Shown here one piece after another: positions 1 to 60,600 of a stretch of 60,600 bases of DNA. The first letter of the stretch is position 1. Each line of letters starts with the position of its first letter. Source of the DNA: Gemmatimonadota bacterium (lineage in GTDB: Bacteria > Gemmatimonadota > Gemmatimonadetes > Gemmatimonadales > GWC2-71-9). The stretch covers positions 1 to 60,600 of the forward strand of contig JAWXBX010000234.1 of the NCBI GenBank assembly GCA_034440415.1, given 5' to 3'. A model generated the notes under the pieces. The model did not search any database. It was not told the DNA's origin and was given only the letters and a program-made list of their open reading frames with translations. The translations under genes and the position numbers were made by a program.

Positions 1-27
1 CTAGTTACCTGGCTATCGAGGGATTTT

Positions 28-372
28 GTGGCCAAACCCCGCACCGACGTCCTCCAGGGCACCCTGACGCTTCTGATCCTCAAGACGGTGAGCCGGTCGC
101 GGCTGCACGGCTACGCCATCACCAGCCAGATCCAGCGCATCTCGCATGACCTGCTGCGAGTCGAGGAGGGTTCACTCTACCCGGCGCTGCACCGCATGGA
201 AGAGGACGGCTGGATCAAGAGCGAATGGGGCATCACCGAGACCGGGCGCCGCGCGCGGTTTTATGGCATTACCGCGAAGGGGCGCACGCAGCTGGCGGAA
301 GAAGAGGAAAGCTGGGACCGGCTGCTCAAGGGCGTCGGCCATGTGCTGCGGTTCGCCGCAGCGGGAGCGTGA
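28..372 (+). CDS. PadR-family transcriptional regulator
   Basis: 114 aa with a GTG start. Winged-helix PadR signature (LLILKTV...HGYAI...SLYPALHRMEEDGWI...W...GR.RFY.IT..G). The stop lies 2 nt before the permease ATG. Confidence 0.9.
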   Translation: MAKPRTDVLQGTLTLLILKTVSRSRLHGYAITSQIQRISHDLLRVEEGSLYPALHRMEEDGWIKSEWGITETGRRARFYGITAKGRTQLAEEEESWDRLLKGVGHVLRFAAAGA

Positions 373-374
373 CC

Positions 375-2992
375 ATGAGTGTCCGCTCCAGGATCATCGA
401 TTCGCTGTTCCGCCGTGAGCGTCTCTCCACTGATCTGGCCGACGAGATGGCCTTTCACATCGAGGAGCGCACCCGCGAGAACATCCACAGGGGCATGACG
501 CCCGCCGAGGCGGAAGCCGAGGCGCGCCGGAGCTTCGGCAATGTGTCACTGCGGCACGACGAGATCCGGGTAATCGCGTGGGTCGATAGCATTGTGCGGG
601 AAGCGGGACAGGCGCTCCGCAGTCTCGGCCGTCGGCCGGGATTCGTCGCCACCGCGGCGCTCTCCCTGGCGCTCGGCATCGGGGCCACCAGCACCATCTT
701 CAGCGTGGTCGATACCGTGCTCTTCCGCCCGCTCTCCGCGCTGAACCCGGAATCACTGGTGAGCTTCCGCGAGGTGCGCAAAGGCGAACTGATCGGCGGC
801 AACGCCGAGCGGCTGCGCGACTATCGGGCCAGCGCCACGACCCTCACCCAGCTTTCCGGCTTTTACGGCGAGCCCGCCACGCTCACCGGCAACGCGGAAC
901 CGGAGCGGATCGAATCGCTCCGTACCTTCGGCCCGCTGTTGCAGCTGCTTGGCATCGAACCCATGCTGGGCCGGAGTTTCACCGACGAGGAGCGTGACGG
1001 CCTCGGTGCACCCGTCGCGCTCATGAGTCATGGCCTCTGGCAGCGGCGCTTCGGCGGGAAGCCGGAGACGCTGAACCAGGCCATCACGGTCGACTGGACC
1101 AGCTATACCGTCATTGGCATCCTTGCAACGTCGTTCCGCTACCCGGAGGGCGAGGACCTGGTCATCCCGGCCAGCAGCGGCTTGCAGCAGGCGAGTCGCA
1201 AGCAGGGCAACTACTTCGCGATCGTCGGTCGGCTCGCACCCGGGGTAACACTGACGGCCGCGCAGACGGAAATCGACGGCATTGGCCGGCGCTTCGCCAC
1301 GTCGTATCCGGAAACCGACGGCGAAATGCGCGCGAGCGTGGTGCCGCTGCTGGCGGCCGAGACCGAGTCGGCGCGCGAGCCACTGCTGCTGCTGTTCGGG
1401 GCCGTCGGGCTGGTGCTCCTGATCGCGTGCGTGAATGTGGCGAGCCTGCTGCTTTCCCGTGGCGCGGAGCGCCGGCATGAGGCGGCCATCCGGGTGGCGA
1501 TGGGCGCGGGCCGTGCCAGCCTGCTCCGGCTCTATCTGATCGAGAGTCTCTGGATCGCGATTGCCGGCGCAGGGGGGGCTGATCTTCGCCTGGATCGGCG
1601 TGCCGCTGCTCGCCCGCGTCCTCCCGTCCGAACTGCCCCGACTCTCTGAGGTCAGCCTCGACTTCCGGGTCGTGGGCTTCGCCGCCTTGATCGCTGTTGT
1701 TTCCGGACTCGGTGTCGGCCTGGTGCCGGCGTGGCGAGCCGCACGGGAGGCGGGCAACGAAGCACTGCGGGCCGGTGGTCGCTCGACGCCCTCGAGCAGC
1801 CGGGTGCTGGCGCGACGGACGCTGGTGGTGGTTCAAGTTGCGCTCTCGATGATCCTGCTGGTGGGCGCCGCGCTGCTGGGGCGCAGTCTGTACCAGATGC
1901 GGACACTCCGACGGGGCTGGGCGAGACCCGGGCGCTGGCGGTGCGGATCAACTGGTCGTGGGATGCGGGCGACACTCGACTGCACGAGTTCCAGCGCCGG
2001 CTGCTCGAGAGTTTCGTGGCGCTCCCCGGGGTGCGGTCCGTTGGTATGACCGATCGGCTGCCGCTCGAAGGCGGTGCCCAGTCACGCCCGGTGCAGCTGC
2101 GCGACGCGACGTCGCCCTGGGCGGCTCTGCTGGGCGACAGGTCCATCTCGTACCGGGCGGTCGATCCCGGCTATTTCCAGACCCTCAACATCCCGGTGCG
2201 CGGCGAGAGACTGTGGAGCTCCAACCGCGGACCGCAGGAGCCGCGGGAGGTGGTCGTCAACGAAACCTTTGCCCGGATGTACCTCCCTCCCGGCGGGGCG
2301 CTCGGCCGCTACCTCACGCTCGACACCAGGTCCGGCGGAGGGCCGCCCCAGAGCTGGGCTGAAGTGGTCGGTGTCGTCGGCGACCTGCGCATGACGCTGA
2401 ATCAGCCGGAGCCGGTACCGGAGATCTATGTGCCATACCAGGAGACCTACTGGCCACTGCTGACGATCGTGCTGAGCGCGAGCGGCGACCCCAGAGCGCT
2501 GACTCAGCAGGTACGCGACGCGGTACATGCGATCGACCCCGACCAGATCATCGACGGGATCGCACCACTGGAAGACGAACTGAAGATCGCGACCGCCGAG
2601 GCACGGACGCGGACCGGGATGGTCGGGGTGTTCGCGCTGGCGGCGCTGCTGCTGGCAGGGATTGGACTCTACGGTGTGCTGTCGAGCGATGTCACCCAGC
2701 GCACCCAGGAGATCGGGGTGCGACTGGCACTCGGCGCCGATCCAAACAGGTGCGCTGGATGCTGGTGCGCCGCGGGCTACTGCTTACCACCGCCGGACTC
2801 GGTACGGGGCTGGCCGCGGCGTTCCTGCTGGGGAAGGTGCTGGCCAATCAGTTGTTTGGCGTGACGGCGACGGACCTGCTCGCCTTTGCTGGTGCGGCAG
2901 TGGTGCTTGCCACCGTGGCGCTGGTCGCCTGCTGGGTGCCGGCGCAGCGGGCGGCGCGTCTGGATCCGGTGGAGGCGCTGAGGCGGGAGTAG
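375..2992 (+). pseudogene. ADOP-family duplicated FtsX/MacB-like permease, interrupted by three +/-1 frameshifts
   Basis: One continuous homologous protein is spread over four ORF-track frames: 375-~1578, ~1579-~1900, ~1900-~2749 and ~2750-2992. The N-terminus MSVRSRIIDSLFRRERL...FHIEERT and C-terminus ...CWVPAQRAARLDPVEALRRE are typical of ADOP permeases. The first shift lies in a G7 run at 1572-1578. Confidence 0.85.
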
Positions 2993-3045
2993 GCGCGACC
3001 GAAGCGCCTTAGGAGCGGCGAAGCCGCGACTCGGCGCGAGGGAGG

Positions 3046-3061
3046 GGCGATTGGGCGGTTG
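3046..3061. repeat. Octamer tandem repeat GGCGATTG-GGCGGTTG (2 units, possibly a degenerate third)
   Basis: Read directly. The 18-mer ggcgattgggcggttggg is identical to the one at 5311-5328. It lies between convergent genes. Confidence 0.85.
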
Positions 3062-3149
3062 GGACGGCAAGAAGCCAGGTGGCGGCGGAGCTCCAGCTCC
3101 GCCCATGGCGAGCTGCTATCTCATCTCAGGCAAGGGGTACACTGCTACC

Positions 3150-4166
3150 CTACCCCAGCACCCGCGTCTCACCATGCGCCAGCAGCCACAGCCCCTCGGG
3201 ATCGTAGCCGATCTTCTCCCACAAGGCACGGAAGCGTTTTGGTGGCTCATCGAGTGCTTCGTCGGTGAGCTTGAAGGTGCCCCAGTGAATCGGCACCACC
3301 GCTGGCGGGCGGATGGAGTGCGATGCACCCGCGGCCAGTCGTTGCGACGCGGCAGCGCCTAACAGGGCGGCGTACGCCTCGAGCGCGTCCTCGGGATTCA
3401 TGTGCATGGCCTGCATGAACCAGCGCGGGGCATAGGCGCCGATCGGCAGGAGGACGACATCGAACGGGCCGAAGCGCCGGCCGATCTCGCCGAAGACCGG
3501 ATGCAGGCCGGTGTCGCCCGCAAAGAACACGGCACGATTCCCCACCCGGACGGTCCAGCCACACCAGAGCGACTGATTGCGGTCGTGAAAGCCGCGGGCG
3601 CTGAAATGCTGCGCGGGGGTGCAGCCCATCGTGGCGCCGGCGGCGTGGAGCGTGCCCCACCAGTCGCACTCCTCGATGACCTGCACCCCAAGCTGCCGGA
3701 GCAGTGAACGCAGGCCGAGCGGTGCGCACCAGACGGCGCGCGGGTGGAGCCGTGCGAGCGCGCGGACGGTGCCGCTGTCAAGATGGTCGTAGTGATTGTG
3801 CGACAGCAGTACGATGTCGATCGCCGGCAGCGCGCTGAGGAGTACGGGAGGGCGCATGAAGCGCCGCAGCCGGGGCAGCGGGACCGGCGCCGCATGACTG
3901 CCCCAGACCGGATCGGTCAGGACGGTGCAGCCGGGAAACTCGATCAGCACCGACGAGTGCCCGCACCAGGTGATAGCGAGCGCACCCTTCCGACCGGCCA
4001 GCCCGAATTTCGGGGTGGCGGCGGGGAAGCTGCCGCGAGGTGGATCGGCGGCGGGACGATGGGTCGTGTTGCGATCGAGGAACCACTTGAACAGGTCACC
4101 GTATCCCCTGACTTCACTGCCGGGCCAGGGGTTGCGGAAGCCGCCGTTGGGGTCGTGGTGATCCAT
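3150..4166 (-). CDS. MBL-fold metallo-hydrolase (NAPE-PLD-like / Lactamase_B_2 type)
   Basis: 338 aa ORF with the HxHxDH motif (LLSHNHYDHLD) and downstream GDTG and H residues typical of this family. Confidence 0.85.
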   Translation of the reverse strand: MDHHDPNGGFRNPWPGSEVRGYGDLFKWFLDRNTTHRPAADPPRGSFPAATPKFGLAGRKGALAITWCGHSSVLIEFPGCTVLTDPVWGSHAAPVPLPRLRRFMRPPVLLSALPAIDIVLLSHNHYDHLDSGTVRALARLHPRAVWCAPLGLRSLLRQLGVQVIEECDWWGTLHAAGATMGCTPAQHFSARGFHDRNQSLWCGWTVRVGNRAVFFAGDTGLHPVFGEIGRRFGPFDVVLLPIGAYAPRWFMQAMHMNPEDALEAYAALLGAAASQRLAAGASHSIRPPAVVPIHWGTFKLTDEALDEPPKRFRALWEKIGYDPEGLWLLAHGETRVLG

Positions 4167-4398
4167 AAGGGGAATGTAAGTGGGGGCGGTCGGACGGGCA
4201 GATGGTCAGGGGAAAGGGGGACACGAGGTGATCCGTTTCGCTGGGGTTTGTAGCGATTCGGTGCAAGGGAGAATCAGAAGCCGACTTGGTAACCTCTTGC
4301 GGGTGAATGGCTTTTCGGAAAATCACCGATGGCAGGAGAGATGCCCATGAGGACGGCAGAGCATCACTCACGATGATCCCTTCATTCCGGAGCGTTCC

Positions 4399-4857
4399 AT
4401 GCGTATCGCCTTCCTGATTCCAGCCGCCGTCACTCTGCTCGCCGCCTGTTCCGCCACCTCCAGCACCGACCCGAGCGCCGCGGGTAGCGGTGCCAACGCG
4501 ACTGGCGGGGCCAACACCGGCGTCGGGGCCAATGCTGCCATCGCACGAGTGACGTGCGACGTGCGGGTGCCCTCCCGCTCCAGGATTTCCGTGGACGGCA
4601 ACAACCTGAGTCCGCTCAACGGACGATTTACCGCCAGGGTGCGTTCCGGCGCGAACGGCGCGGCCGCTCCGGCCCAGACGGCTGTTGGCGACCAGGCCGG
4701 CTTCGACTTCGACAGCAACCCGGCCGACATCGCCGCCGGTGCGACCGCGATCAGCCGCACCTTCATCTCCGCCGCGGCGCCGACGGTCTCGGCCCAGATC
4801 CTCAACGCCGCCGGCGTCGTCGTGGCGAGCGGAACGGCCAGCTGCCGGGTGCGCTGA
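4399..4857 (+). CDS. Hypothetical lipoprotein
   Basis: 152 aa with a signal peptide and lipobox (AAVTLLAAC). The mature part is Ala/Gly/Ser-rich and is followed by a hairpin. Confidence 0.7.
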   Translation: MRIAFLIPAAVTLLAACSATSSTDPSAAGSGANATGGANTGVGANAAIARVTCDVRVPSRSRISVDGNNLSPLNGRFTARVRSGANGAAAPAQTAVGDQAGFDFDSNPADIAAGATAISRTFISAAAPTVSAQILNAAGVVVASGTASCRVR

Positions 4858-4875
4858 GTCGCCACCAATCCATGC

Positions 4876-4909
4876 CTGACGGGGGGCTCCTTCGGGAGCC
4901 CCCCATCAG
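4876..4909 (+). terminator. Putative intrinsic terminator hairpin
   Basis: GGGGGGCTCC (4881-4890), loop TTCG, GGAGCCCCCC (4895-4904), with a few extra flanking pairs. It starts 19 nt after the lipoprotein stop. The trailing T tract is weak (gcgtttcc). Confidence 0.5.
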
Positions 4910-5310
4910 CGTTTCCACTCCCCGCGCGTTGTGAGGCGGCCCGCGGAAGGTCGCGCGGCGACCGATGGTTGCGCAATCCCGCGGTTGCTCGCACCGCCCG
5001 CTCTACTGGCTCGGGCTGACAGGAGAGTGCGGCACGGGAACCATCGCTCCGCCGTACCCCGCCTCGGCAGCTTGCCAATTCCATCATCGCGCTTCAGCTT
5101 CATCCGGAGCCCCCTCGCAGGCTGCCAATGCCACATCGGACCCCGCTCTTCTTCCTCGCGTTTCTTGCGGGCTGCGGCCGCACTGAGCACGCCGGCCTCG
5201 CTGTGCCGATCATCGACACCATCGCCGGCCCGCGCGCGTCAAGAAGTTCTTCCATCATCCGCGCGTTCGCTACGCCGCGTAGTATCAACTAAACCGTGGC
5301 CCAAGTAATA

Positions 5311-5326
5311 GGCGATTGGGCGGTTG
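5311..5326. repeat. Octamer tandem repeat GGCGATTG-GGCGGTTG
   Basis: Read directly and identical to 3046-3061. It sits at the upstream edge of a gene remnant in a visibly less GC-rich patch. Confidence 0.85.
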
Positions 5327-5362
5327 GGCATATTCAGCTTGACTCGTCTCGATAGGGACTGT

Positions 5363-5452
5363 GCGGCTCCGTCGGTCTCCGCGCAGATCCTCAACGCCGT
5401 CGGGACAATCGTGACCAGCGGGACCGCACTTGCCTTCAGCCACCACCGATAG
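5363..5452 (+). pseudogene. 3'-terminal remnant of a paralogue of the 4399..4857 lipoprotein gene
   Basis: It translates to AAPSVSAQILNAVGTIVTSGTALAFSHHR*, compared with the C-terminus AAPTVSAQILNAAGVVVASGTASCRVR* of 4399..4857. A stop lies in frame at 5309-5311, so only about 30 codons remain. Confidence 0.5.
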
Positions 5453-5512
5453 TTATTTCGGTATCTCTTCGCTTCAACTTCGCCCTCCTGCAACTTCTAT
5501 GGTGGACTTCCC

Positions 5513-6898
5513 GTGAAGGGCTTCGTTCCCACCCCGCCAGCCGTCGTTGACCTGATGGTCGCCAAGCTCTTCGTGGAGCGGGCGCCAGGGGGTGACGCAT
5601 CCGTCCTGGATCCGGGCTGCGGCGATGGCGAGTTCATAGCGGGAGTGCTGCGGGCCTGTGCCGCGAATCGCTGGGTGGTACCCCGAATCGTCGGGGTCGA
5701 GCAGAATCCGGTGCGCGCGGCCACGGCCAGGGAGCGATTCAGCCAGACGCCTGAAGTTGAGATCCTGCAGGCGGATTTCCTCCAACGGCTGGATTCGTCC
5801 TTCGACTACATCATCGGCAACCCCCCCTACGTTTCGATCACCGGCCTCTCGCCCGACGAGCGCATCACCTATCGGGAGGCCTACCACACGGCGCGCGGCC
5901 GGTTTGACCTGTACACGCTGTTCTTCGAGCAGGCGCTGTGGCTATTGAAGGCGGACGGACGACTGGTCTTCATCACGCCGGAGAAGTTCATCTACGTCGA
6001 GACTGCCGCGCCACTCCGGGGGTTGCTGCGTCGGCACGGGGTCGAGGAGCTGCATTTCGCCAGTGAAGCCACCTTCGGTGAACGGGTCACATACCCGCTC
6101 ATCTCGACAATCAACGCCCTGCCGCCCGGCGCGCAGACACGGGTGGTGCGCCGCGACAGCTCTGTCGCCAGCGTGGCATTACATACGACGGCGTCCTGGC
6201 TACCGGTGATCGAGGGCTTTCCTGATCGACCCTCCACCTCGAAGATGTGTCTCTCCGATGTCGCCCTGCGAATCAGCTGCGGTGTGGCGACAGGCGCGGA
6301 CGGGGTGTTTGTCGTGCCTGCCGCCGAGCTTTCGCCGGAACTCAAGTCATTCGCGCACCCGACGGTGTCCGGCCGACAGATCATGCCCTCCCATGAGCTT
6401 GTGCTCCGCTCCAGCCTGCTGGCACCCTACGATGAAGCGGGCGGACTGTTGCCGGAGCATCAGCTCGGTGCGCTGGGAACATTCCTGCGCGACCCGAAAC
6501 GCCGCGACCGGCTGGATCGTCGCACGTGCGTCGGGCGCAAGCCATGGTACGCATTTCACGACAACTTCCCGCTGGCCGATTTGCTGCGGCCCAAGCTCCT
6601 CTGCAAGGACATCACGGAAGAACCCTTCTTCGTGGTGGACCGTGATGGTGTCCTGGTGCCGCGGCATTCAGTTTACTATATCGTGCCGGCCGATCCCGCC
6701 GATCTCGAGCCGCTGGCCGAGTACCTGAACTCGGCGGAGGCGCGCGCGTGGCTGCGGGCGCATTGCCAGCGCGCCGCCAATGGCTTCCTGCGACTGCAGA
6801 GTCACGTCCTGAAAAAACTTCCCCTGCCGGTCGGCTTTCATTCACGCGCCGAAGTGAGTCGAGCATCCTCCCGGCAGCGGGAGCTGCTTCCCGCATGA
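5513..6898 (+). CDS. Type II N6-adenine DNA methyltransferase, gamma class (Eco57I/TaqI-like) with C-terminal TaqI_C-like target recognition domain
   Basis: 461 aa with a GTG start. Motif I is LDPGCGDGEF and motif IV is IIGNPPY, in the order I then IV. The C-terminal ISCGVATGADGVFVV-type segment resembles TaqI-like specificity domains. Confidence 0.9.
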   Translation: MKGFVPTPPAVVDLMVAKLFVERAPGGDASVLDPGCGDGEFIAGVLRACAANRWVVPRIVGVEQNPVRAATARERFSQTPEVEILQADFLQRLDSSFDYIIGNPPYVSITGLSPDERITYREAYHTARGRFDLYTLFFEQALWLLKADGRLVFITPEKFIYVETAAPLRGLLRRHGVEELHFASEATFGERVTYPLISTINALPPGAQTRVVRRDSSVASVALHTTASWLPVIEGFPDRPSTSKMCLSDVALRISCGVATGADGVFVVPAAELSPELKSFAHPTVSGRQIMPSHELVLRSSLLAPYDEAGGLLPEHQLGALGTFLRDPKRRDRLDRRTCVGRKPWYAFHDNFPLADLLRPKLLCKDITEEPFFVVDRDGVLVPRHSVYYIVPADPADLEPLAEYLNSAEARAWLRAHCQRAANGFLRLQSHVLKKLPLPVGFHSRAEVSRASSRQRELLPA

Positions 6899-7674
6899 GT
6901 ACGCCGTTCGACGCCGCGATGGCGGCGATCACAGCGGCGGGGTATCACAATCACCGGCTCGAGACCCACTCGGATCTAGTGTCCGACGGCGTTGTTGCCG
7001 ATCTGCGCGTAGCCTGCGAAGCGTTTCGGAGGGACCTTGAGGATGGTGTGGTGCGGATCTGGAAAAACGTGGCCTCGCCGGGCGACCGCAAGCGGAAGGT
7101 GGATCTATTTGTAGGTGAACCGGGTTCCGATGGTGGGCCGGATATCGGAAGGGTGCGCATCGCGGTGGAGAACAAGTCCGTCATCACCGCGCACCGCAAC
7201 CGAACCAATCGCTTCGATGACCTCTCGAAGGTGCTCGCCGCTGTGCAGGGTGCTCGGCCGGGGGCATTGCCGATCGCCACGGTGCTTGTCGGTGTGGCGG
7301 ACAGGGTACTGAATGTGCCCGATCATGTGCACAAGTTCTTCCGCGACCGGGACGATGCATTCAGGGCTCAGGTCCTGCCGCGCCTTTCCACCGGCGACGA
7401 GACGCTGTTTGAGGAATTCTCCTGGGCCATCAGCGAGAACAGGCCGCAGGACCCCGCACAGACCGTCGCCATGTTCCGCACCCTCCCGACCCGTGGCCCG
7501 GCGCAGACCCACCTGGTCGCCTACGACTCGGTGCTCCTCGTGCCGGTGCAAATCGACAACGTGCATCCACCCGCACTGCCCCGGCCGAACAGCCTTGGCA
7601 TCGATGTCGACGCGGACTACCGGGAATGCATCGCCAAGACGTGCAGGGCTTACACCGCGCGGTACCACATGTGA
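6895..7674 (+). CDS. Candidate cognate restriction endonuclease (PD-(D/E)xK-like hypothetical protein)
   Basis: The ATG at 6895 overlaps the methyltransferase stop (ATGA), suggesting translational coupling. 259 aa with a KVDLFVGEP...(about 17 aa)...IAVENKS arrangement consistent with D...ExK. I recognise no other family. Confidence 0.55.
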   Translation: MSTPFDAAMAAITAAGYHNHRLETHSDLVSDGVVADLRVACEAFRRDLEDGVVRIWKNVASPGDRKRKVDLFVGEPGSDGGPDIGRVRIAVENKSVITAHRNRTNRFDDLSKVLAAVQGARPGALPIATVLVGVADRVLNVPDHVHKFFRDRDDAFRAQVLPRLSTGDETLFEEFSWAISENRPQDPAQTVAMFRTLPTRGPAQTHLVAYDSVLLVPVQIDNVHPPALPRPNSLGIDVDADYRECIAKTCRAYTARYHM

Positions 7675-7917
7675 TGCCGTTGGTAGTCCACCCGCATCAC
7701 CGTGGTACCCGTGTAGCCTCGCCGGAACCGGCGTTGCCCCGACCCGGCTGCAGCTATTCGTGATCGGTGGCTGCCAGCACTACGCCGAGTCGCCGCGTCG
7801 GGCGGTGGGTGGAGCTGGAGTCGAAGGAGGGAATGAACCGGCGGTCGCCCCGCCTGGGACTGGACCTCACTAGCCCCAACCCTCCGCCGTTTTCCCCTCA
7901 CGCACAGGATCACTTCA

Positions 7918-8340
7918 ATGCATCCCTCAACTACACGATCACGGTTCACCTCCTTTGCGAAGGCGACCGCCCGTGCCACGGGGCGGCCCCTGGCGTTCAT
8001 CCTCGCTGTGAGCGTGATCGTCGTCTGGCTCGTGACGGGCCCGCTGTTCAAGTTCAGCGACACCTGGCAATTGGTGATCAATACGGGGACGACCATCATC
8101 ACCTTCCTGATGGTGTTCCTCATTCAGAACACCCAGAATCGTGATGCCGAGGCCGTGCAGGTCAAGCTGGACGAATTGCTGCGTTCCACGGCGGGGGCGC
8201 ACAACGCACTGCTGGACCTTGAAGAGCTCGAGGAGCGCGAAATCGACCAGATCCGCGCTGGCTACGCCCGCCTGGCGGAGCGCGCCCGCGCGGACCTGCG
8301 GCGGGGAGAGCGTGACACCGGCGTGCCGGACATCGGATGA
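7918..8340 (+). CDS. Low-affinity iron permease family protein (Fet4-like small bacterial form)
   Basis: 140 aa. The GPLFKFSDTWQLVINTGTTIITFLMVFLIQNTQNRD...KLDELL block is characteristic of the family. Confidence 0.8.
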   Translation: MHPSTTRSRFTSFAKATARATGRPLAFILAVSVIVVWLVTGPLFKFSDTWQLVINTGTTIITFLMVFLIQNTQNRDAEAVQVKLDELLRSTAGAHNALLDLEELEEREIDQIRAGYARLAERARADLRRGERDTGVPDIG

Positions 8341-8469
8341 TCACTGCCTCGCCTCCAGAAGCAGGTGATTCAGCTTCCTTCCCATTTGCACGCTCGATGT
8401 CCGGCACTCCGAAGCTGAGGCACTCGATCAAGAAATTGGAGGAGCAAGGGAATCGCGGCAGGTGGTCGT

Positions 8470-8892
8470 TTGACGCTCGCCAACCCGTCAAGTGTGAAGG
8501 TTCCGATGCCTGATGCCCGCCGGGAAGTGACCGTCAAGACCCTGACCCAGCCGGGTGGACACTACAGCCACGCGGTGGTGGGCGCGGGGCTGGTCTTCGT
8601 GGCCGGCCAGCTCCCGATCACCTCCGATGGCACCCGGCTCACTGACGCTCCTTTCGCGGTCCAGGTGGAACAGACGCTGGCCAACATCGCCGCCGCGCTC
8701 ACCGCTGCCGGCAGCGGCGTCGAGAAGCTGCTCAGCGTCAGAGTGTACCTGACCGACATCGACGACTGGACGGAGTTCAACACGATCTACGCCGGCTGGG
8801 CCGGAGACGCCCGGCCGGCCCGCGCGGTGGTGCCAGTCCCGGTCCTGCACTTCGGCGTTCGAGTTGAAATCGAGGCAGTGGCGCTGGCGTAA
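8470..8892 (+). CDS. RidA/YjgF/L-PSP family protein
   Basis: Shows HYSHAV...LVFVAGQLP...VEQTLANIAAAL.AAG...VRVYLTD..D...N.IY...ARAVVPV..L....VEIEAVA. The track start is TTG 8470, and ATG at 8506 is an alternative start. Confidence 0.85.
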   Translation: MTLANPSSVKVPMPDARREVTVKTLTQPGGHYSHAVVGAGLVFVAGQLPITSDGTRLTDAPFAVQVEQTLANIAAALTAAGSGVEKLLSVRVYLTDIDDWTEFNTIYAGWAGDARPARAVVPVPVLHFGVRVEIEAVALA

Positions 8893-51708: not shown

Positions 51709-52131
51709 TTACGCCAGCGCCACTGCCTCGATTTCAACTCGAACGCCGAAGTGCAGGACCGGGACTGGCACCACCGCGCGGGCCGGCCGGGCGTCTCCGG
51801 CCCAGCCGGCGTAGATCGTGTTGAACTCCGTCCAGTCGTCGATGTCGGTCAGGTACACTCTGACGCTGAGCAGCTTCTCGACGCCGCTGCCGGCAGCGGT
51901 GAGCGCGGCGGCGATGTTGGCCAGCGTCTGTTCCACCTGGACCGCGAAAGGAGCGTCAGTGAGCCGGGTGCCATCGGAGGTGATCGGGAGCTGGCCGGCC
52001 ACGAAGACCAGCCCCGCGCCCACCACCGCGTGGCTGTAGTGTCCACCCGGCTGGGTCAGGGTCTTGACGGTCACTTCCCGGCGGGCATCAGGCATCGGAA
52101 CCTTCACACTTGACGGGTTGGCGAGCGTCAA
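51709..52131 (-). CDS. Mirror copy: RidA/YjgF family protein
   Basis: Reverse complement of 8470..8892. Confidence 0.85.
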   Translation of the reverse strand: MTLANPSSVKVPMPDARREVTVKTLTQPGGHYSHAVVGAGLVFVAGQLPITSDGTRLTDAPFAVQVEQTLANIAAALTAAGSGVEKLLSVRVYLTDIDDWTEFNTIYAGWAGDARPARAVVPVPVLHFGVRVEIEAVALA

Positions 52132-52260
52132 ACGACCACCTGCCGCGATTCCCTTGCTCCTCCAATTTCTTGATCGAGTGCCTCAGCTTCGGAGTGCCGG
52201 ACATCGAGCGTGCAAATGGGAAGGAAGCTGAATCACCTGCTTCTGGAGGCGAGGCAGTGA

Positions 52261-52683
52261 TCATCCGATGTCCGGCACGCCGGTGTCACGCTCTCCCCGC
52301 CGCAGGTCCGCGCGGGCGCGCTCCGCCAGGCGGGCGTAGCCAGCGCGGATCTGGTCGATTTCGCGCTCCTCGAGCTCTTCAAGGTCCAGCAGTGCGTTGT
52401 GCGCCCCCGCCGTGGAACGCAGCAATTCGTCCAGCTTGACCTGCACGGCCTCGGCATCACGATTCTGGGTGTTCTGAATGAGGAACACCATCAGGAAGGT
52501 GATGATGGTCGTCCCCGTATTGATCACCAATTGCCAGGTGTCGCTGAACTTGAACAGCGGGCCCGTCACGAGCCAGACGACGATCACGCTCACAGCGAGG
52601 ATGAACGCCAGGGGCCGCCCCGTGGCACGGGCGGTCGCCTTCGCAAAGGAGGTGAACCGTGATCGTGTAGTTGAGGGATGCAT
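52261..52683 (-). CDS. Mirror copy: low-affinity iron permease family protein
   Basis: Reverse complement of 7918..8340. Confidence 0.8.
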   Translation of the reverse strand: MHPSTTRSRFTSFAKATARATGRPLAFILAVSVIVVWLVTGPLFKFSDTWQLVINTGTTIITFLMVFLIQNTQNRDAEAVQVKLDELLRSTAGAHNALLDLEELEEREIDQIRAGYARLAERARADLRRGERDTGVPDIG

Positions 52684-52926
52684 TGAAGTGATCCTGTGCG
52701 TGAGGGGAAAACGGCGGAGGGTTGGGGCTAGTGAGGTCCAGTCCCAGGCGGGGCGACCGCCGGTTCATTCCCTCCTTCGACTCCAGCTCCACCCACCGCC
52801 CGACGCGGCGACTCGGCGTAGTGCTGGCAGCCACCGATCACGAATAGCTGCAGCCGGGTCGGGGCAACGCCGGTTCCGGCGAGGCTACACGGGTACCACG
52901 GTGATGCGGGTGGACTACCAACGGCA

Positions 52927-53706
52927 TCACATGTGGTACCGCGCGGTGTAAGCCCTGCACGTCTTGGCGATGCATTCCCGGTAGTCCGCGTCGACATCGA
53001 TGCCAAGGCTGTTCGGCCGGGGCAGTGCGGGTGGATGCACGTTGTCGATTTGCACCGGCACGAGGAGCACCGAGTCGTAGGCGACCAGGTGGGTCTGCGC
53101 CGGGCCACGGGTCGGGAGGGTGCGGAACATGGCGACGGTCTGTGCGGGGTCCTGCGGCCTGTTCTCGCTGATGGCCCAGGAGAATTCCTCAAACAGCGTC
53201 TCGTCGCCGGTGGAAAGGCGCGGCAGGACCTGAGCCCTGAATGCATCGTCCCGGTCGCGGAAGAACTTGTGCACATGATCGGGCACATTCAGTACCCTGT
53301 CCGCCACACCGACAAGCACCGTGGCGATCGGCAATGCCCCCGGCCGAGCACCCTGCACAGCGGCGAGCACCTTCGAGAGGTCATCGAAGCGATTGGTTCG
53401 GTTGCGGTGCGCGGTGATGACGGACTTGTTCTCCACCGCGATGCGCACCCTTCCGATATCCGGCCCACCATCGGAACCCGGTTCACCTACAAATAGATCC
53501 ACCTTCCGCTTGCGGTCGCCCGGCGAGGCCACGTTTTTCCAGATCCGCACCACACCATCCTCAAGGTCCCTCCGAAACGCTTCGCAGGCTACGCGCAGAT
53601 CGGCAACAACGCCGTCGGACACTAGATCCGAGTGGGTCTCGAGCCGGTGATTGTGATACCCCGCCGCTGTGATCGCCGCCATCGCGGCGTCGAACGGCGT
53701 ACTCAT
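52927..53706 (-). CDS. Mirror copy: candidate PD-(D/E)xK restriction endonuclease
   Basis: Reverse complement of 6895..7674. Confidence 0.55.
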   Translation of the reverse strand: MSTPFDAAMAAITAAGYHNHRLETHSDLVSDGVVADLRVACEAFRRDLEDGVVRIWKNVASPGDRKRKVDLFVGEPGSDGGPDIGRVRIAVENKSVITAHRNRTNRFDDLSKVLAAVQGARPGALPIATVLVGVADRVLNVPDHVHKFFRDRDDAFRAQVLPRLSTGDETLFEEFSWAISENRPQDPAQTVAMFRTLPTRGPAQTHLVAYDSVLLVPVQIDNVHPPALPRPNSLGIDVDADYRECIAKTCRAYTARYHM

Positions 53707-55088
53707 GCGGGAAGCAGCTCCCGCTGCCGGGAGGATGCTCGACTCACTTCGGCGCGTGAATGAAAGCCGACCGGCAGGGGAAGTTTTTTCAGGACGTGAC
53801 TCTGCAGTCGCAGGAAGCCATTGGCGGCGCGCTGGCAATGCGCCCGCAGCCACGCGCGCGCCTCCGCCGAGTTCAGGTACTCGGCCAGCGGCTCGAGATC
53901 GGCGGGATCGGCCGGCACGATATAGTAAACTGAATGCCGCGGCACCAGGACACCATCACGGTCCACCACGAAGAAGGGTTCTTCCGTGATGTCCTTGCAG
54001 AGGAGCTTGGGCCGCAGCAAATCGGCCAGCGGGAAGTTGTCGTGAAATGCGTACCATGGCTTGCGCCCGACGCACGTGCGACGATCCAGCCGGTCGCGGC
54101 GTTTCGGGTCGCGCAGGAATGTTCCCAGCGCACCGAGCTGATGCTCCGGCAACAGTCCGCCCGCTTCATCGTAGGGTGCCAGCAGGCTGGAGCGGAGCAC
54201 AAGCTCATGGGAGGGCATGATCTGTCGGCCGGACACCGTCGGGTGCGCGAATGACTTGAGTTCCGGCGAAAGCTCGGCGGCAGGCACGACAAACACCCCG
54301 TCCGCGCCTGTCGCCACACCGCAGCTGATTCGCAGGGCGACATCGGAGAGACACATCTTCGAGGTGGAGGGTCGATCAGGAAAGCCCTCGATCACCGGTA
54401 GCCAGGACGCCGTCGTATGTAATGCCACGCTGGCGACAGAGCTGTCGCGGCGCACCACCCGTGTCTGCGCGCCGGGCGGCAGGGCGTTGATTGTCGAGAT
54501 GAGCGGGTATGTGACCCGTTCACCGAAGGTGGCTTCACTGGCGAAATGCAGCTCCTCGACCCCGTGCCGACGCAGCAACCCCCGGAGTGGCGCGGCAGTC
54601 TCGACGTAGATGAACTTCTCCGGCGTGATGAAGACCAGTCGTCCGTCCGCCTTCAATAGCCACAGCGCCTGCTCGAAGAACAGCGTGTACAGGTCAAACC
54701 GGCCGCGCGCCGTGTGGTAGGCCTCCCGATAGGTGATGCGCTCGTCGGGCGAGAGGCCGGTGATCGAAACGTAGGGGGGGTTGCCGATGATGTAGTCGAA
54801 GGACGAATCCAGCCGTTGGAGGAAATCCGCCTGCAGGATCTCAACTTCAGGCGTCTGGCTGAATCGCTCCCTGGCCGTGGCCGCGCGCACCGGATTCTGC
54901 TCGACCCCGACGATTCGGGGTACCACCCAGCGATTCGCGGCACAGGCCCGCAGCACTCCCGCTATGAACTCGCCATCGCCGCAGCCCGGATCCAGGACGG
55001 ATGCGTCACCCCCTGGCGCCCGCTCCACGAAGAGCTTGGCGACCATCAGGTCAACGACGGCTGGCGGGGTGGGAACGAAGCCCTTCAC
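53703..55088 (-). CDS. Mirror copy: gamma-class N6-adenine DNA methyltransferase
   Basis: Reverse complement of 5513..6898. Confidence 0.9.
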   Translation of the reverse strand: MKGFVPTPPAVVDLMVAKLFVERAPGGDASVLDPGCGDGEFIAGVLRACAANRWVVPRIVGVEQNPVRAATARERFSQTPEVEILQADFLQRLDSSFDYIIGNPPYVSITGLSPDERITYREAYHTARGRFDLYTLFFEQALWLLKADGRLVFITPEKFIYVETAAPLRGLLRRHGVEELHFASEATFGERVTYPLISTINALPPGAQTRVVRRDSSVASVALHTTASWLPVIEGFPDRPSTSKMCLSDVALRISCGVATGADGVFVVPAAELSPELKSFAHPTVSGRQIMPSHELVLRSSLLAPYDEAGGLLPEHQLGALGTFLRDPKRRDRLDRRTCVGRKPWYAFHDNFPLADLLRPKLLCKDITEEPFFVVDRDGVLVPRHSVYYIVPADPADLEPLAEYLNSAEARAWLRAHCQRAANGFLRLQSHVLKKLPLPVGFHSRAEVSRASSRQRELLPA

Positions 55089-55148
55089 GGGAAGTCCACC
55101 ATAGAAGTTGCAGGAGGGCGAAGTTGAAGCGAAGAGATACCGAAATAA

Positions 55149-55238
55149 CTATCGGTGGTGGCTGAAGGCAAGTGCGGTCCCGCTGGTCACGATTGTCCCG
55201 ACGGCGTTGAGGATCTGCGCGGAGACCGACGGAGCCGC
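55149..55238 (-). pseudogene. Mirror copy: lipoprotein-paralogue 3' remnant
   Basis: Reverse complement of 5363..5452. Confidence 0.5.
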
Positions 55239-55274
55239 ACAGTCCCTATCGAGACGAGTCAAGCTGAATATGCC

Positions 55275-55290
55275 CAACCGCCCAATCGCC
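55275..55290. repeat. Mirror copy: octamer repeat (2 units)
   Basis: Reverse complement of 5311..5326, checked base by base. Confidence 0.85.
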
Positions 55291-55691
55291 TATTACTTGG
55301 GCCACGGTTTAGTTGATACTACGCGGCGTAGCGAACGCGCGGATGATGGAAGAACTTCTTGACGCGCGCGGGCCGGCGATGGTGTCGATGATCGGCACAG
55401 CGAGGCCGGCGTGCTCAGTGCGGCCGCAGCCCGCAAGAAACGCGAGGAAGAAGAGCGGGGTCCGATGTGGCATTGGCAGCCTGCGAGGGGGCTCCGGATG
55501 AAGCTGAAGCGCGATGATGGAATTGGCAAGCTGCCGAGGCGGGGTACGGCGGAGCGATGGTTCCCGTGCCGCACTCTCCTGTCAGCCCGAGCCAGTAGAG
55601 CGGGCGGTGCGAGCAACCGCGGGATTGCGCAACCATCGGTCGCCGCGCGACCTTCCGCGGGCCGCCTCACAACGCGCGGGGAGTGGAAACG

Positions 55692-55725
55692 CTGATGGGG
55701 GGCTCCCGAAGGAGCCCCCCGTCAG
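55692..55725 (-). terminator. Mirror copy: putative terminator hairpin
   Basis: Reverse complement of 4876..4909. Confidence 0.5.
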
Positions 55726-55743
55726 GCATGGATTGGTGGCGAC

Positions 55744-56202
55744 TCAGCGCACCCGGCAGCTGGCCGTTCCGCTCGCCACGACGACGCCGGCGGCGTTGAG
55801 GATCTGGGCCGAGACCGTCGGCGCCGCGGCGGAGATGAAGGTGCGGCTGATCGCGGTCGCACCGGCGGCGATGTCGGCCGGGTTGCTGTCGAAGTCGAAG
55901 CCGGCCTGGTCGCCAACAGCCGTCTGGGCCGGAGCGGCCGCGCCGTTCGCGCCGGAACGCACCCTGGCGGTAAATCGTCCGTTGAGCGGACTCAGGTTGT
56001 TGCCGTCCACGGAAATCCTGGAGCGGGAGGGCACCCGCACGTCGCACGTCACTCGTGCGATGGCAGCATTGGCCCCGACGCCGGTGTTGGCCCCGCCAGT
56101 CGCGTTGGCACCGCTACCCGCGGCGCTCGGGTCGGTGCTGGAGGTGGCGGAACAGGCGGCGAGCAGAGTGACGGCGGCTGGAATCAGGAAGGCGATACGC
56201 AT
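55744..56202 (-). CDS. Mirror copy: hypothetical lipoprotein
   Basis: Reverse complement of 4399..4857. Confidence 0.7.
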   Translation of the reverse strand: MRIAFLIPAAVTLLAACSATSSTDPSAAGSGANATGGANTGVGANAAIARVTCDVRVPSRSRISVDGNNLSPLNGRFTARVRSGANGAAAPAQTAVGDQAGFDFDSNPADIAAGATAISRTFISAAAPTVSAQILNAAGVVVASGTASCRVR

Positions 56203-56434
56203 GGAACGCTCCGGAATGAAGGGATCATCGTGAGTGATGCTCTGCCGTCCTCATGGGCATCTCTCCTGCCATCGGTGATTTTCCGAAAAGCCATTCACCC
56301 GCAAGAGGTTACCAAGTCGGCTTCTGATTCTCCCTTGCACCGAATCGCTACAAACCCCAGCGAAACGGATCACCTCGTGTCCCCCTTTCCCCTGACCATC
56401 TGCCCGTCCGACCGCCCCCACTTACATTCCCCTT

Positions 56435-57451
56435 ATGGATCACCACGACCCCAACGGCGGCTTCCGCAACCCCTGGCCCGGCAGTGAAGTCAGGGGATAC
56501 GGTGACCTGTTCAAGTGGTTCCTCGATCGCAACACGACCCATCGTCCCGCCGCCGATCCACCTCGCGGCAGCTTCCCCGCCGCCACCCCGAAATTCGGGC
56601 TGGCCGGTCGGAAGGGTGCGCTCGCTATCACCTGGTGCGGGCACTCGTCGGTGCTGATCGAGTTTCCCGGCTGCACCGTCCTGACCGATCCGGTCTGGGG
56701 CAGTCATGCGGCGCCGGTCCCGCTGCCCCGGCTGCGGCGCTTCATGCGCCCTCCCGTACTCCTCAGCGCGCTGCCGGCGATCGACATCGTACTGCTGTCG
56801 CACAATCACTACGACCATCTTGACAGCGGCACCGTCCGCGCGCTCGCACGGCTCCACCCGCGCGCCGTCTGGTGCGCACCGCTCGGCCTGCGTTCACTGC
56901 TCCGGCAGCTTGGGGTGCAGGTCATCGAGGAGTGCGACTGGTGGGGCACGCTCCACGCCGCCGGCGCCACGATGGGCTGCACCCCCGCGCAGCATTTCAG
57001 CGCCCGCGGCTTTCACGACCGCAATCAGTCGCTCTGGTGTGGCTGGACCGTCCGGGTGGGGAATCGTGCCGTGTTCTTTGCGGGCGACACCGGCCTGCAT
57101 CCGGTCTTCGGCGAGATCGGCCGGCGCTTCGGCCCGTTCGATGTCGTCCTCCTGCCGATCGGCGCCTATGCCCCGCGCTGGTTCATGCAGGCCATGCACA
57201 TGAATCCCGAGGACGCGCTCGAGGCGTACGCCGCCCTGTTAGGCGCTGCCGCGTCGCAACGACTGGCCGCGGGTGCATCGCACTCCATCCGCCCGCCAGC
57301 GGTGGTGCCGATTCACTGGGGCACCTTCAAGCTCACCGACGAAGCACTCGATGAGCCACCAAAACGCTTCCGTGCCTTGTGGGAGAAGATCGGCTACGAT
57401 CCCGAGGGGCTGTGGCTGCTGGCGCATGGTGAGACGCGGGTGCTGGGGTAG
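56435..57451 (+). CDS. Mirror copy: NAPE-PLD-like MBL-fold hydrolase
   Basis: Reverse complement of 3150..4166. Confidence 0.85.
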   Translation: MDHHDPNGGFRNPWPGSEVRGYGDLFKWFLDRNTTHRPAADPPRGSFPAATPKFGLAGRKGALAITWCGHSSVLIEFPGCTVLTDPVWGSHAAPVPLPRLRRFMRPPVLLSALPAIDIVLLSHNHYDHLDSGTVRALARLHPRAVWCAPLGLRSLLRQLGVQVIEECDWWGTLHAAGATMGCTPAQHFSARGFHDRNQSLWCGWTVRVGNRAVFFAGDTGLHPVFGEIGRRFGPFDVVLLPIGAYAPRWFMQAMHMNPEDALEAYAALLGAAASQRLAAGASHSIRPPAVVPIHWGTFKLTDEALDEPPKRFRALWEKIGYDPEGLWLLAHGETRVLG

Positions 57452-57539
57452 GGTAGCAGTGTACCCCTTGCCTGAGATGAGATAGCAGCTCGCCATGGGC
57501 GGAGCTGGAGCTCCGCCGCCACCTGGCTTCTTGCCGTCC

Positions 57540-57555
57540 CAACCGCCCAATCGCC
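57540..57555. repeat. Mirror copy: octamer repeat (2 units)
   Basis: Reverse complement of 3046..3061. Confidence 0.85.
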
Positions 57556-57608
57556 CCTCCCTCGCGCCGAGTCGCGGCTTCGCCGCTCCTAAGGCGCTTC
57601 GGTCGCGC

Positions 57609-60226
57609 CTACTCCCGCCTCAGCGCCTCCACCGGATCCAGACGCGCCGCCCGCTGCGCCGGCACCCAGCAGGCGACCAGCGCCACGGTGGCAAGCACCA
57701 CTGCCGCACCAGCAAAGGCGAGCAGGTCCGTCGCCGTCACGCCAAACAACTGATTGGCCAGCACCTTCCCCAGCAGGAACGCCGCGGCCAGCCCCGTACC
57801 GAGTCCGGCGGTGGTAAGCAGTAGCCCGCGGCGCACCAGCATCCAGCGCACCTGTTTGGATCGGCGCCGAGTGCCAGTCGCACCCCGATCTCCTGGGTGC
57901 GCTGGGTGACATCGCTCGACAGCACACCGTAGAGTCCAATCCCTGCCAGCAGCAGCGCCGCCAGCGCGAACACCCCGACCATCCCGGTCCGCGTCCGTGC
58001 CTCGGCGGTCGCGATCTTCAGTTCGTCTTCCAGTGGTGCGATCCCGTCGATGATCTGGTCGGGGTCGATCGCATGTACCGCGTCGCGTACCTGCTGAGTC
58101 AGCGCTCTGGGGTCGCCGCTCGCGCTCAGCACGATCGTCAGCAGTGGCCAGTAGGTCTCCTGGTATGGCACATAGATCTCCGGTACCGGCTCCGGCTGAT
58201 TCAGCGTCATGCGCAGGTCGCCGACGACACCGACCACTTCAGCCCAGCTCTGGGGCGGCCCTCCGCCGGACCTGGTGTCGAGCGTGAGGTAGCGGCCGAG
58301 CGCCCCGCCGGGAGGGAGGTACATCCGGGCAAAGGTTTCGTTGACGACCACCTCCCGCGGCTCCTGCGGTCCGCGGTTGGAGCTCCACAGTCTCTCGCCG
58401 CGCACCGGGATGTTGAGGGTCTGGAAATAGCCGGGATCGACCGCCCGGTACGAGATGGACCTGTCGCCCAGCAGAGCCGCCCAGGGCGACGTCGCGTCGC
58501 GCAGCTGCACCGGGCGTGACTGGGCACCGCCTTCGAGCGGCAGCCGATCGGTCATACCAACGGACCGCACCCCGGGGAGCGCCACGAAACTCTCGAGCAG
58601 CCGGCGCTGGAACTCGTGCAGTCGAGTGTCGCCCGCATCCCACGACCAGTTGATCCGCACCGCCAGCGCCCGGGTCTCGCCCAGCCCCGTCGGAGTGTCC
58701 GCATCTGGTACAGACTGCGCCCCAGCAGCGCGGCGCCCACCAGCAGGATCATCGAGAGCGCAACTTGAACCACCACCAGCGTCCGTCGCGCCAGCACCCG
58801 GCTGCTCGAGGGCGTCGAGCGACCACCGGCCCGCAGTGCTTCGTTGCCCGCCTCCCGTGCGGCTCGCCACGCCGGCACCAGGCCGACACCGAGTCCGGAA
58901 ACAACAGCGATCAAGGCGGCGAAGCCCACGACCCGGAAGTCGAGGCTGACCTCAGAGAGTCGGGGCAGTTCGGACGGGAGGACGCGGGCGAGCAGCGGCA
59001 CGCCGATCCAGGCGAAGATCAGCCCCCCCTGCGCCGGCAATCGCGATCCAGAGACTCTCGATCAGATAGAGCCGGAGCAGGCTGGCACGGCCCGCGCCCA
59101 TCGCCACCCGGATGGCCGCCTCATGCCGGCGCTCCGCGCCACGGGAAAGCAGCAGGCTCGCCACATTCACGCACGCGATCAGGAGCACCAGCCCGACGGC
59201 CCCGAACAGCAGCAGCAGTGGCTCGCGCGCCGACTCGGTCTCGGCCGCCAGCAGCGGCACCACGCTCGCGCGCATTTCGCCGTCGGTTTCCGGATACGAC
59301 GTGGCGAAGCGCCGGCCAATGCCGTCGATTTCCGTCTGCGCGGCCGTCAGTGTTACCCCGGGTGCGAGCCGACCGACGATCGCGAAGTAGTTGCCCTGCT
59401 TGCGACTCGCCTGCTGCAAGCCGCTGCTGGCCGGGATGACCAGGTCCTCGCCCTCCGGGTAGCGGAACGACGTTGCAAGGATGCCAATGACGGTATAGCT
59501 GGTCCAGTCGACCGTGATGGCCTGGTTCAGCGTCTCCGGCTTCCCGCCGAAGCGCCGCTGCCAGAGGCCATGACTCATGAGCGCGACGGGTGCACCGAGG
59601 CCGTCACGCTCCTCGTCGGTGAAACTCCGGCCCAGCATGGGTTCGATGCCAAGCAGCTGCAACAGCGGGCCGAAGGTACGGAGCGATTCGATCCGCTCCG
59701 GTTCCGCGTTGCCGGTGAGCGTGGCGGGCTCGCCGTAAAAGCCGGAAAGCTGGGTGAGGGTCGTGGCGCTGGCCCGATAGTCGCGCAGCCGCTCGGCGTT
59801 GCCGCCGATCAGTTCGCCTTTGCGCACCTCGCGGAAGCTCACCAGTGATTCCGGGTTCAGCGCGGAGAGCGGGCGGAAGAGCACGGTATCGACCACGCTG
59901 AAGATGGTGCTGGTGGCCCCGATGCCGAGCGCCAGGGAGAGCGCCGCGGTGGCGACGAATCCCGGCCGACGGCCGAGACTGCGGAGCGCCTGTCCCGCTT
60001 CCCGCACAATGCTATCGACCCACGCGATTACCCGGATCTCGTCGTGCCGCAGTGACACATTGCCGAAGCTCCGGCGCGCCTCGGCTTCCGCCTCGGCGGG
60101 CGTCATGCCCCTGTGGATGTTCTCGCGGGTGCGCTCCTCGATGTGAAAGGCCATCTCGTCGGCCAGATCAGTGGAGAGACGCTCACGGCGGAACAGCGAA
60201 TCGATGATCCTGGAGCGGACACTCAT
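57609..60226 (-). pseudogene. Mirror copy: frameshifted ADOP-family permease
   Basis: Reverse complement of 375..2992, with the same three frameshifts. Confidence 0.85.
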
Positions 60227-60228
60227 GG

Positions 60229-60573
60229 TCACGCTCCCGCTGCGGCGAACCGCAGCACATGGCCGACGCCCTTGAGCAGCCGGTCCCAGCTTTCCTCTTC
60301 TTCCGCCAGCTGCGTGCGCCCCTTCGCGGTAATGCCATAAAACCGCGCGCGGCGCCCGGTCTCGGTGATGCCCCATTCGCTCTTGATCCAGCCGTCCTCT
60401 TCCATGCGGTGCAGCGCCGGGTAGAGTGAACCCTCCTCGACTCGCAGCAGGTCATGCGAGATGCGCTGGATCTGGCTGGTGATGGCGTAGCCGTGCAGCC
60501 GCGACCGGCTCACCGTCTTGAGGATCAGAAGCGTCAGGGTGCCCTGGAGGACGTCGGTGCGGGGTTTGGCCAC
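60229..60573 (-). CDS. Mirror copy: PadR-family transcriptional regulator
   Basis: Reverse complement of 28..372. Confidence 0.9.
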   Translation of the reverse strand: MAKPRTDVLQGTLTLLILKTVSRSRLHGYAITSQIQRISHDLLRVEEGSLYPALHRMEEDGWIKSEWGITETGRRARFYGITAKGRTQLAEEEESWDRLLKGVGHVLRFAAAGA

Positions 60574-60600
60574 AAAATCCCTCGATAGCCAGGTAACTAG

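Follow-up and report, generated by a model that had tools for sequence, protein, structure and literature searches.

A contig that reads identically on both strands over tens of kilobases raises the question of whether such a structure exists in the organism or only in the assembly. This question is posed here by a 60,600-nt stretch of Gemmatimonadota DNA (contig JAWXBX010000234.1), which was analyzed at its full length and is hereafter called the window. The original prediction, made before any database search, had described it as a perfect palindrome without spacer and had considered an artefact to be the most likely origin. Our analysis leads to the same answer in a more precise form: with a probability of about 0.88, the 60.6 kb palindrome is an artefact that arose at the contig level in short-read de Bruijn-graph assembly, with a small number of fold-back chimeric reads at a natural palindrome of 18 nt as its seed. 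The genuine sequence is restricted to positions 1-30309, and positions 30310-60600 are fictitious. This reading is supported by native sequence running through the axis under seven accessions, by the lack of extra coverage of the arm and by the lack of any resolvase or replicon gene in it. The feature is not real, and the matter is one of data quality only.

Symmetry of the window and the gene at its axis

When the window was aligned with its own reverse complement, the check proposed in the original prediction, 0 mismatches were found over 60,600 nt, and the base counts were symmetric (A=T=10,104; G=C=20,196; GC 66.7%). The axis lies at 30300|30301 in a sequence of even length, and the letters at the centre (...GGTGGACCAGCGC|GCGCTGGTCCACC...) leave no room for a spacer, in agreement with the loop-free centre described previously. 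Because the window is self-reverse-complementary, every open reading frame (ORF) a..b is twinned at 60601-b..60601-a; the opposite-strand twins with identical translations that had been pointed out are therefore correct and follow from the symmetry. A perfect palindrome of 60.6 kb cannot have arisen by chance. The longest spacer-less palindromes measure 18 nt in the native sequence as reconstructed here (about 40.4 kb).

The axis of the window is the exact centre of one of these, GACCAGCGC|GCGCTGGTC, which encodes ...D-Q-R-A-L-V... of a RidA domain (Table 1). Only 2 sites with a half-length of at least 9 occur in the 40,404 native positions, the axis site being one of them. A palindrome of such length is not unusual in itself, since it is present in 35% of Markov shuffles; the coincidence of the axis with it amounts to about 2 in 40,404. 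At the homologous site, relatives without the Gln codon have half-lengths of 0-5. A related strain from another dataset (L122, ENA ERZ27313621 k141_2849050) encodes a 410-aa protein with the same domains and has no palindrome there (GACCAGCAG|GCATTGATC). Therefore, the 18-nt palindrome is private to the Lake Vanda population considered in the next section.

A near-palindrome, GCGCTGGT-GG-ACCAGCGC, adjoins the axis upstream, so that the native region has the form X-GG-X'-X and alternative hairpins are possible. Folded as single-stranded DNA, the native axis region gave -12.9 kcal/mol with z = -3.0. The second natural 18-nt palindrome, CTGGTCCAG|CTGGACCAG, is instructive in this respect, as neither contig breaks nor fold-backs were seen at it in the same-population contigs. 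Palindrome length alone is therefore not predictive of an artefact. Unlike this second site, the axis site has the flanking X-GG-X' repeat and adjoins a region where assemblies break.

That the axis cuts a gene had also been recognized, and the gene can now be named. An ORF encoding a fusion of SDR and RidA domains is interrupted at codon 390, agreement with the native sequence extending through codon 393 of 402, and the RidA match (Ribonuc_L-PSP) in the window halts at profile position 113 of 121. The native protein has 402 aa and the C-terminus ...RALVEIETTAVVG*. This SDR-RidA fusion is kept across Gemmatimonadales, where relatives end in ...ALVEIEATAV(V/L)G*; on this basis, the window cuts the gene 12 codons short of its stop. 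The reading frame then continues antisense into the mirror arm, and the resulting chimeric product of 478 aa has no record in the protein index. Within the mirror arm, positions 30301-30309 still match the native sequence, and the first non-native base of the window is 30310.

Native and fold-back sequence in same-population assemblies

Loci of the same population were retrieved by exact-protein look-ups in JGI, ENA and Logan assemblies. The locus was found in the JGI metagenomes 3300020213, 3300022222, 3300015360, 3300020219, 3300020180, 3300020057 and 3300020192, among others, as well as in the ENA assembly ERZ505514 and in Logan assemblies of SRR6448204-SRR6448219. These runs are libraries of benthic microbial mats from Lake Vanda (Antarctica), prepared with KAPA HyperPrep and sequenced on HiSeq 2500 at 2x151 bp, without multiple displacement amplification (MDA); MEGAHIT was the assembler for the metagenome-assembled genomes (MAGs) that the project published, among which are Gemmatimonadales with a GC content of 67.2-67.4% (PMC11080526). 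The window is tied to the KAPA HyperPrep libraries through sequence identity only. Between the arm and the same-population contigs, identity was 99.88-100% with 0 gaps and only scattered single-nucleotide polymorphisms (SNPs), hence the arm is real genomic sequence. The zero indels relative to these Illumina assemblies leave no sign of noisy long reads in the arm. Two native contigs (L081/L082) reach 2,083 nt past window position 1, so neither outer end of the window is an end of the genome. Alleles private to the window (13357T, 13668G and 29217A, with their mirror positions) occurred in none of about 20 same-population contigs. Neither the protein with the window-private allele nor the AsnB ORF as called had a record in the protein index, and the exact 27-mer left of the axis had no match in the metagenome_contigs or viral_contigs collections, in which these samples are evidently not included. 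The window probably stems from a further assembly, or a strain mix, of the Lake Vanda population.

At the axis, the native loci have ...GCGCTGGTGGACCAGCGC|GCGCTGGTCGAGATCGAAACGACGGCGGTGGTGGGGTAG, from where they go on into unique sequence. Seven contigs (L100, L105, L106, L107, L114, L115 and L123) read GCGCTGGTCGAGATCGAAACG... after the axis, and the native read-through string ...GCGCTGGTCGAGATCGAA... was found in assemblies under seven JGI/Logan sample or run accessions. Four are from JGI (3300020213, L105/L116, 73,771 nt; 3300022222, L106/L117, 73,784 nt; 3300020057, L107; 3300015360, L115) and three from Logan (SRR6448211, L100/L111; SRR6448212, L114/L120; SRR6448210, L123). The two configurations are distinguished by short diagnostic strings, CTGGTGGACCAGCGCGCGCTGGTCCACCAG for the fold-back junction and ...GCGCTGGTCGAGATC... 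for the native sequence. Beyond the axis, the SDR-RidA gene is completed and followed by genes for an enoyl-CoA hydratase, an acyl-CoA dehydrogenase and two OYE-type oxidoreductases, and further on by those for tryptophan 2,3-dioxygenase, kynureninase, a multicopper oxidase, a methyltransferase and AdoHcy hydrolase. Native contigs run more than 34 kb past the axis.

At 40-130 nt beyond this point, the intergenic sequence (structured over L100 6346-6470, at +40..+165 from the axis) contains a G-tract run, GGGCGGGCGGTTGGGCGGG, that resembles a G-quadruplex, together with an inverted repeat whose 12-nt arms are interrupted by a loop of 40 nt. As single-stranded DNA, it has a minimum free energy of -30 kcal/mol, with a z of only -1.5. 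Assembly breaks recur here: B-side contigs, i.e., those lying beyond the axis, begin at +51, +52, +56 and +96, and L107 ends at +182. In another sample, the first 18 nt of contig L118 are the reverse complement of +109..+126, being composed of one 12-nt arm of the inverted repeat and 6 non-native nt by which the reverse complement of the distal arm is lengthened. The start of L118 is a second fold-back-type junction, formed at a different inverted repeat and known from this single example. Two ends of native-path contigs at +21 (L101) and +18 (L109) were considered as a B-side branch and dropped, as nearby strain SNPs explain them equally well.

The fold-back path, and not the native one, was followed in two further assemblies. 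The Logan contig SRR6448204_119386 (L102/L113) ends with ...CAGCGC|GCGCTGGTCCACCAG, 15 nt past the axis, whereas the ENA contig ERZ505514 NODE_2385_length_39809_cov_8.57 (L108) ends 38 nt past it and is identical up to there to the second arm of the window. These offsets, 16+15 and 39+38 nt, are the points where a graph with k=31 or k=77, respectively, meets a k-mer succeeded by its own reverse complement; we take the Logan assemblies to have been built with k=31, and the k=77 of the ENA assembly is deduced from the 39+38 offset itself. Because the 18-nt palindrome is shorter than k+1 at usual k, the junction k-mers must come from junction-bearing reads. A sequencing error is excluded, since five of the six first bases past the shared 9 nt differ from the native sequence. 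The hairpin path through a de Bruijn graph named by the original prediction stands as the favored route, with the refinement that it is not purely algorithmic: junction k-mers exist in the reads, at a natural palindrome, and they seed the path. Read support for the junction spans tens of bases only, and the other approximately 30 kb are the assembler re-walking the opposite strand.

A true inverted duplication would raise the coverage of the A side, i.e., the arm preceding the axis, above that of the B side. In ERZ505514, the SPAdes coverage given in the contig names was 8.57 for the A-side NODE_2385 and 9.39 for the B-side NODE_3831, which starts natively at +56. The arm is therefore without extra dosage. 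In line with the original prediction, only about 30.3 kb of the window is unique, and the genes of the second arm are not independent evidence of paralogy or gene dosage.

Formation of the contig and competing explanations

The true genome has the order A - GACCAGCGC|GCGCTGGTC - B, whereas the window has the order A - palindrome - reverse complement of A. During library construction, which would proceed from mechanical shearing through end-repair and A-tailing to ligation, a single-stranded 3' end bearing the palindrome could snap back on itself or pair with a sister fragment. The repair polymerase would trim and extend the folded end, giving molecules composed of A, the palindrome and the reverse complement of A, and ligation of a Y-adapter would make this fold-back product amplifiable. 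Libraries fragmented by sonication or by enzymes have been shown to contain fold-back chimeric reads at natural palindromes or inverted repeats, which arise at end-repair (PMC10908179), and we infer that library chemistry is the most economical source of the junction reads. In the assembly that gave the window, the native link to B would have been lost at the G-rich structured region downstream of the axis. A coverage failure there would leave the native stub past the axis as a short tip, which assemblers clip, and the inverted-loop edge would then be the sole continuation of unitig A. In a de Bruijn graph, an edge of this kind, termed a “lonely inverted loop”, corresponds to a palindromic unitig, which is output whole by SPAdes and MEGAHIT, halved by ABySS and either way by minia (Rahman & Medvedev, 2022, Genome Res, PMC9528984). 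An assembler spelling the loop in full would output A and then its reverse complement. The arms are identical, the total length is even and no spacer is present because the contig is spelled in this manner. The assembler-dependent output of the whole or the half also fits the window (whole) and L102 (half). Palindromic contigs have been met, and removed as assembly artefacts, elsewhere (bioRxiv 10.1101/2023.06.06.543983).

Some points weigh against this reconstruction. No mirror fold-back, on the B side of the 18-nt palindrome, was seen in any retrieved locus, though a fully symmetric process in vitro might yield one. L108, a SPAdes-style contig, halts at the turn instead of spelling the palindrome, and assembler behavior is thus not uniform. 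The junction occurs in up to three assemblies, and contigs alone cannot tell junction molecules formed in the tube from those formed in the cell. Besides, the chain leading from junction reads through the loss of the native link to the full spelling would have to hold for the window as it is pieced together from the sister assemblies.

The rival that comes closest to these data places the formation of the junction in vivo. A break near the 18-bp palindrome would be resected, and the 3' end would snap back and prime synthesis, with a hairpin-capped end or a symmetric inverted duplication as the outcome, either in a small fraction of the cells or in environmental DNA that had been damaged; the assembler would then extend the rare junction over the full length. 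The position of the junction exactly on a natural palindrome is what snap-back models require, up to three assemblies of the population carry this junction (the window, L108 and L102), and the reads must contain junction k-mers with lengths of 31 nt or more and 77 nt or more. Nevertheless, most assemblies are native through the site, and the coverage of the arm is not in excess (8.57x against 9.39x). Long perfect palindromes are, moreover, unstable in bacteria through cleavage by SbcCD. The similar junction at the nearby inverted repeat in a different sample (L118) points to a general library effect, and end-repair has been described as a source of artefacts with this signature (PMC10908179). 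Short reads support at most about 150 nt of palindrome, so that the extent of 60.6 kb is unsupported regardless of where the junction was formed. We therefore consider formation in vivo unlikely. The broader claim that the junction pre-exists in the DNA of this Antarctic-mat population, breaks beside the 18-bp palindrome in the coding sequence recurrently becoming hairpin-capped or snap-back inverted duplications either in vivo or in extracellular DNA that is damaged, is decidedly improbable. If it were true, a natural palindrome-seeded inversion duplication would have been caught in metagenomes, the 60.6 kb extent still being unproven.

Two further ALTERNATIVES were rejected. Fold-back chimeras of long reads or of amplification (nanopore template-complement reads, a missed SMRTbell adapter or an inverted chimera of MDA) are well-known makers of perfect or near-perfect palindromes (PMC13141652), and they were among the artefact routes listed by the original prediction. 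This part of its list is not retained. The arm has zero indels and a substitution rate of only 0.04-0.1% relative to several Illumina assemblies from 2x151 KAPA HyperPrep libraries, and its apparent frameshifts are common to all of them. The axis is also the junction of Illumina-only assemblies (L102 and L108), whereas fold-backs from a missed adapter or duplex reading fall at random fragment ends, and the libraries of the project were made without MDA (PMC11080526). With no indels, no MDA and a non-random axis, such an origin is very unlikely. The probability of a read-through of the covalently closed hairpin telomere of a linear replicon is negligible. Sequencing around a hairpin end does yield a spacer-less palindrome, and hairpin telomeres of linear replicons are known from Borrelia, Agrobacterium and phage N15. 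Here, however, a conserved coding sequence spans the axis, with its stop 12 codons further on, and the contigs that read natively for more than 34 kb past it refute a telomere at this place. In a search of the 30.3 kb arm, no gene for ResT, TelA, TelN or TelK, for partition or replication or of phage origin was found, and no meaningful similarity to phage or plasmid records was seen.

Unique arm, consequences and comparison with known systems

The genes of the arm were defined by ORF selection guided by GC3 and then annotated with Pfam. From its start, the arm encodes a PadR regulator, two MacB_PCD/FtsX permease ORFs, an MBL-fold hydrolase and an Eco57I/TaqI_C-type N6-methyltransferase, then a low-affinity iron permease, RidA, a YiiD-type thioesterase, EamA, a nitroreductase and a split MBL gene. 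These are followed by a Ser/Thr kinase, TauE, an MR/MLE enzyme, ornithine cyclodeaminase, asparagine synthase, DUF305 and an LVIVD-repeat protein, and finally by a FadB-like enzyme, an acyl-CoA ligase, a creatininase-family protein and the SDR-RidA fusion that runs into the axis. No Pfam or PHROG match to telomere-resolvase, replication, partition or phage functions was obtained in the 30.3 kb arm, unannotated ORFs included, which confirms the earlier remark that replicon functions are missing. Scans of the arm for tRNAs and Rfam families returned nothing, and megablast against phages and plasmids gave no meaningful similarity, with at most trivial gene-fragment matches. The closest genomes are Gemmatimonadota/Gemmatimonadales MAGs, the best being JANOFA010000740 with 85% amino-acid identity and 90.5% nucleotide identity over 3.1 kb. 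An actinobacterial origin, which the GC content and the Ser/Thr kinase had suggested, was rejected on the basis of these relatives. On the whole, the arm is an unremarkable piece of chromosome from a Gemmatimonadales population, with metabolic and transport genes.

Table 1. Positions of the features discussed, in window coordinates.
Feature	Position	Strand	Evidence or context
Unique arm, PadR to SDR-RidA	1..30300	+	Pfam annotation; contig matches from JGI, ENA and Logan
Mirror arm, exact reverse complement of 1-30300	30301..60600	-	0 mismatches
Natural 18-nt perfect palindrome at the axis	30292..30309	.	All native same-population loci
Near-palindrome	30283..30300	.	Sequence; adjoins axis upstream
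Second natural 18-nt perfect palindrome	22211-22228, twin 38373-38390		In ORF directly upstream of LVIVD-repeat gene
Native part of SDR-RidA fusion gene, codons 1-393 of 402	29131..30309	+	Pfam adh_short + Ribonuc_L-PSP
Artefactual C-terminal tail of chimeric 478-aa ORF (antisense read-through of mirror arm)	30310..30567	+	Native versus window translation
MBL-fold (Lactamase_B) gene with frameshift	13499-14453, twin 46148-47102 (+)	-	Gap-free in all independent Illumina assemblies

Some features of the arm deserve mention in their own right. In the frameshifted MBL gene, the N-terminal part ends with ...SFASRARSGLR* and the C-terminal part resumes in another frame. The frameshifted genes are real and not sequencing noise, because all same-population assemblies share them without gaps, and the MBL gene is accordingly a real pseudogene or has a programmed shift, not a sequencing error. 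At the start of the arm (28-2864, + strand), PadR is followed by two neighboring MacB_PCD+FtsX ORFs (225-1649 and 1731-2864), whose products are given as 424 and 307 aa in JGI contigs; the split is common to all assemblies, and the pair looks like a split ADOP-type duplicated permease. At 5513-7674 (+), the N6-adenine DNA methyltransferase of 461 aa overlaps by 4 nt with a 259-aa ORF (6895-7674). This ORF had no Pfam or PHROG match and may encode the cognate restriction endonuclease of a small restriction-modification system. At the other end, 24604-30309 together with the native continuation in L105/L116 places SDR-RidA in a cluster with the creatininase-family, acyl-CoA ligase, FadB-like, enoyl-CoA hydratase and acyl-CoA dehydrogenase genes, which also holds the two OYE-type flavoenzymes, tryptophan 2,3-dioxygenase and kynureninase. 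Such a composition suggests an aromatic or kynurenine-linked catabolic locus.

The consequences of the artefact concern those who use the contig. The axis-spanning 478-aa ORF and its twin are chimeric, and every gene of the second arm is a false paralogue, a duplicate by construction. If a contig of this kind is deposited or binned, the estimates of genome size, of duplication or contamination and of gene dosage are inflated, and the contig could pass for a replicon with hairpin ends or for a giant inverted repeat. A recipe for recognizing such artefacts consists of a self-reverse-complementarity test, an inspection of the axis for a short natural palindrome and a comparison with sister assemblies. 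Moreover, chimeric reads allow even a palindrome of less than k nt to seed the artefact.

Among the known systems, the lonely inverted loop (PMC9528984) resembles the window in its perfect, even-length and spacer-less form, in the ends of the sister assemblies at a k-dependent turning k-mer and in the assembler-dependent output of a whole or a half palindrome. It differs in that the palindromes of that study are truly present in a (synthetic) genome, whereas the genome here has one of 18 nt only; because this native palindrome is shorter than k+1 at usual k, the window is a misassembly whose loop stems from chimeric reads. The PDSM model (BMC Genomics, 2024, PMC10908179) shares the junction centered on a natural perfect palindrome, the read made of a strand and its inverted complement and probably the ligation libraries with end-repair and A-tailing, to which the second junction at a nearby interrupted inverted repeat (L118) can be added. 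In that model, low-frequency soft-clipped reads lead to false calls of single-nucleotide variants and indels in human panels, whereas the outcome here is a false metagenome contig of 60.6 kb.

The formation of palindromes in vivo is known from the symmetric tandem-inversion-duplication (sTID) model of lac amplification in Salmonella, from yeast and Tetrahymena, from studies of E. coli sbcCD and from cells deficient in sbcCD or mre11. The geometry is alike, as a short natural palindrome gives rise to a spacer-less inverted duplication, but the dosage of the arm does not rise here and the native configuration is dominant; an sTID or snap-back mechanism is not needed for these data. With hairpin telomeres resolved by ResT, TelA, TelN or TelK, only the formal symmetry of the sequence is common, since the resolvase is absent from the arm, the axis is intragenic and the genome continues beyond it.

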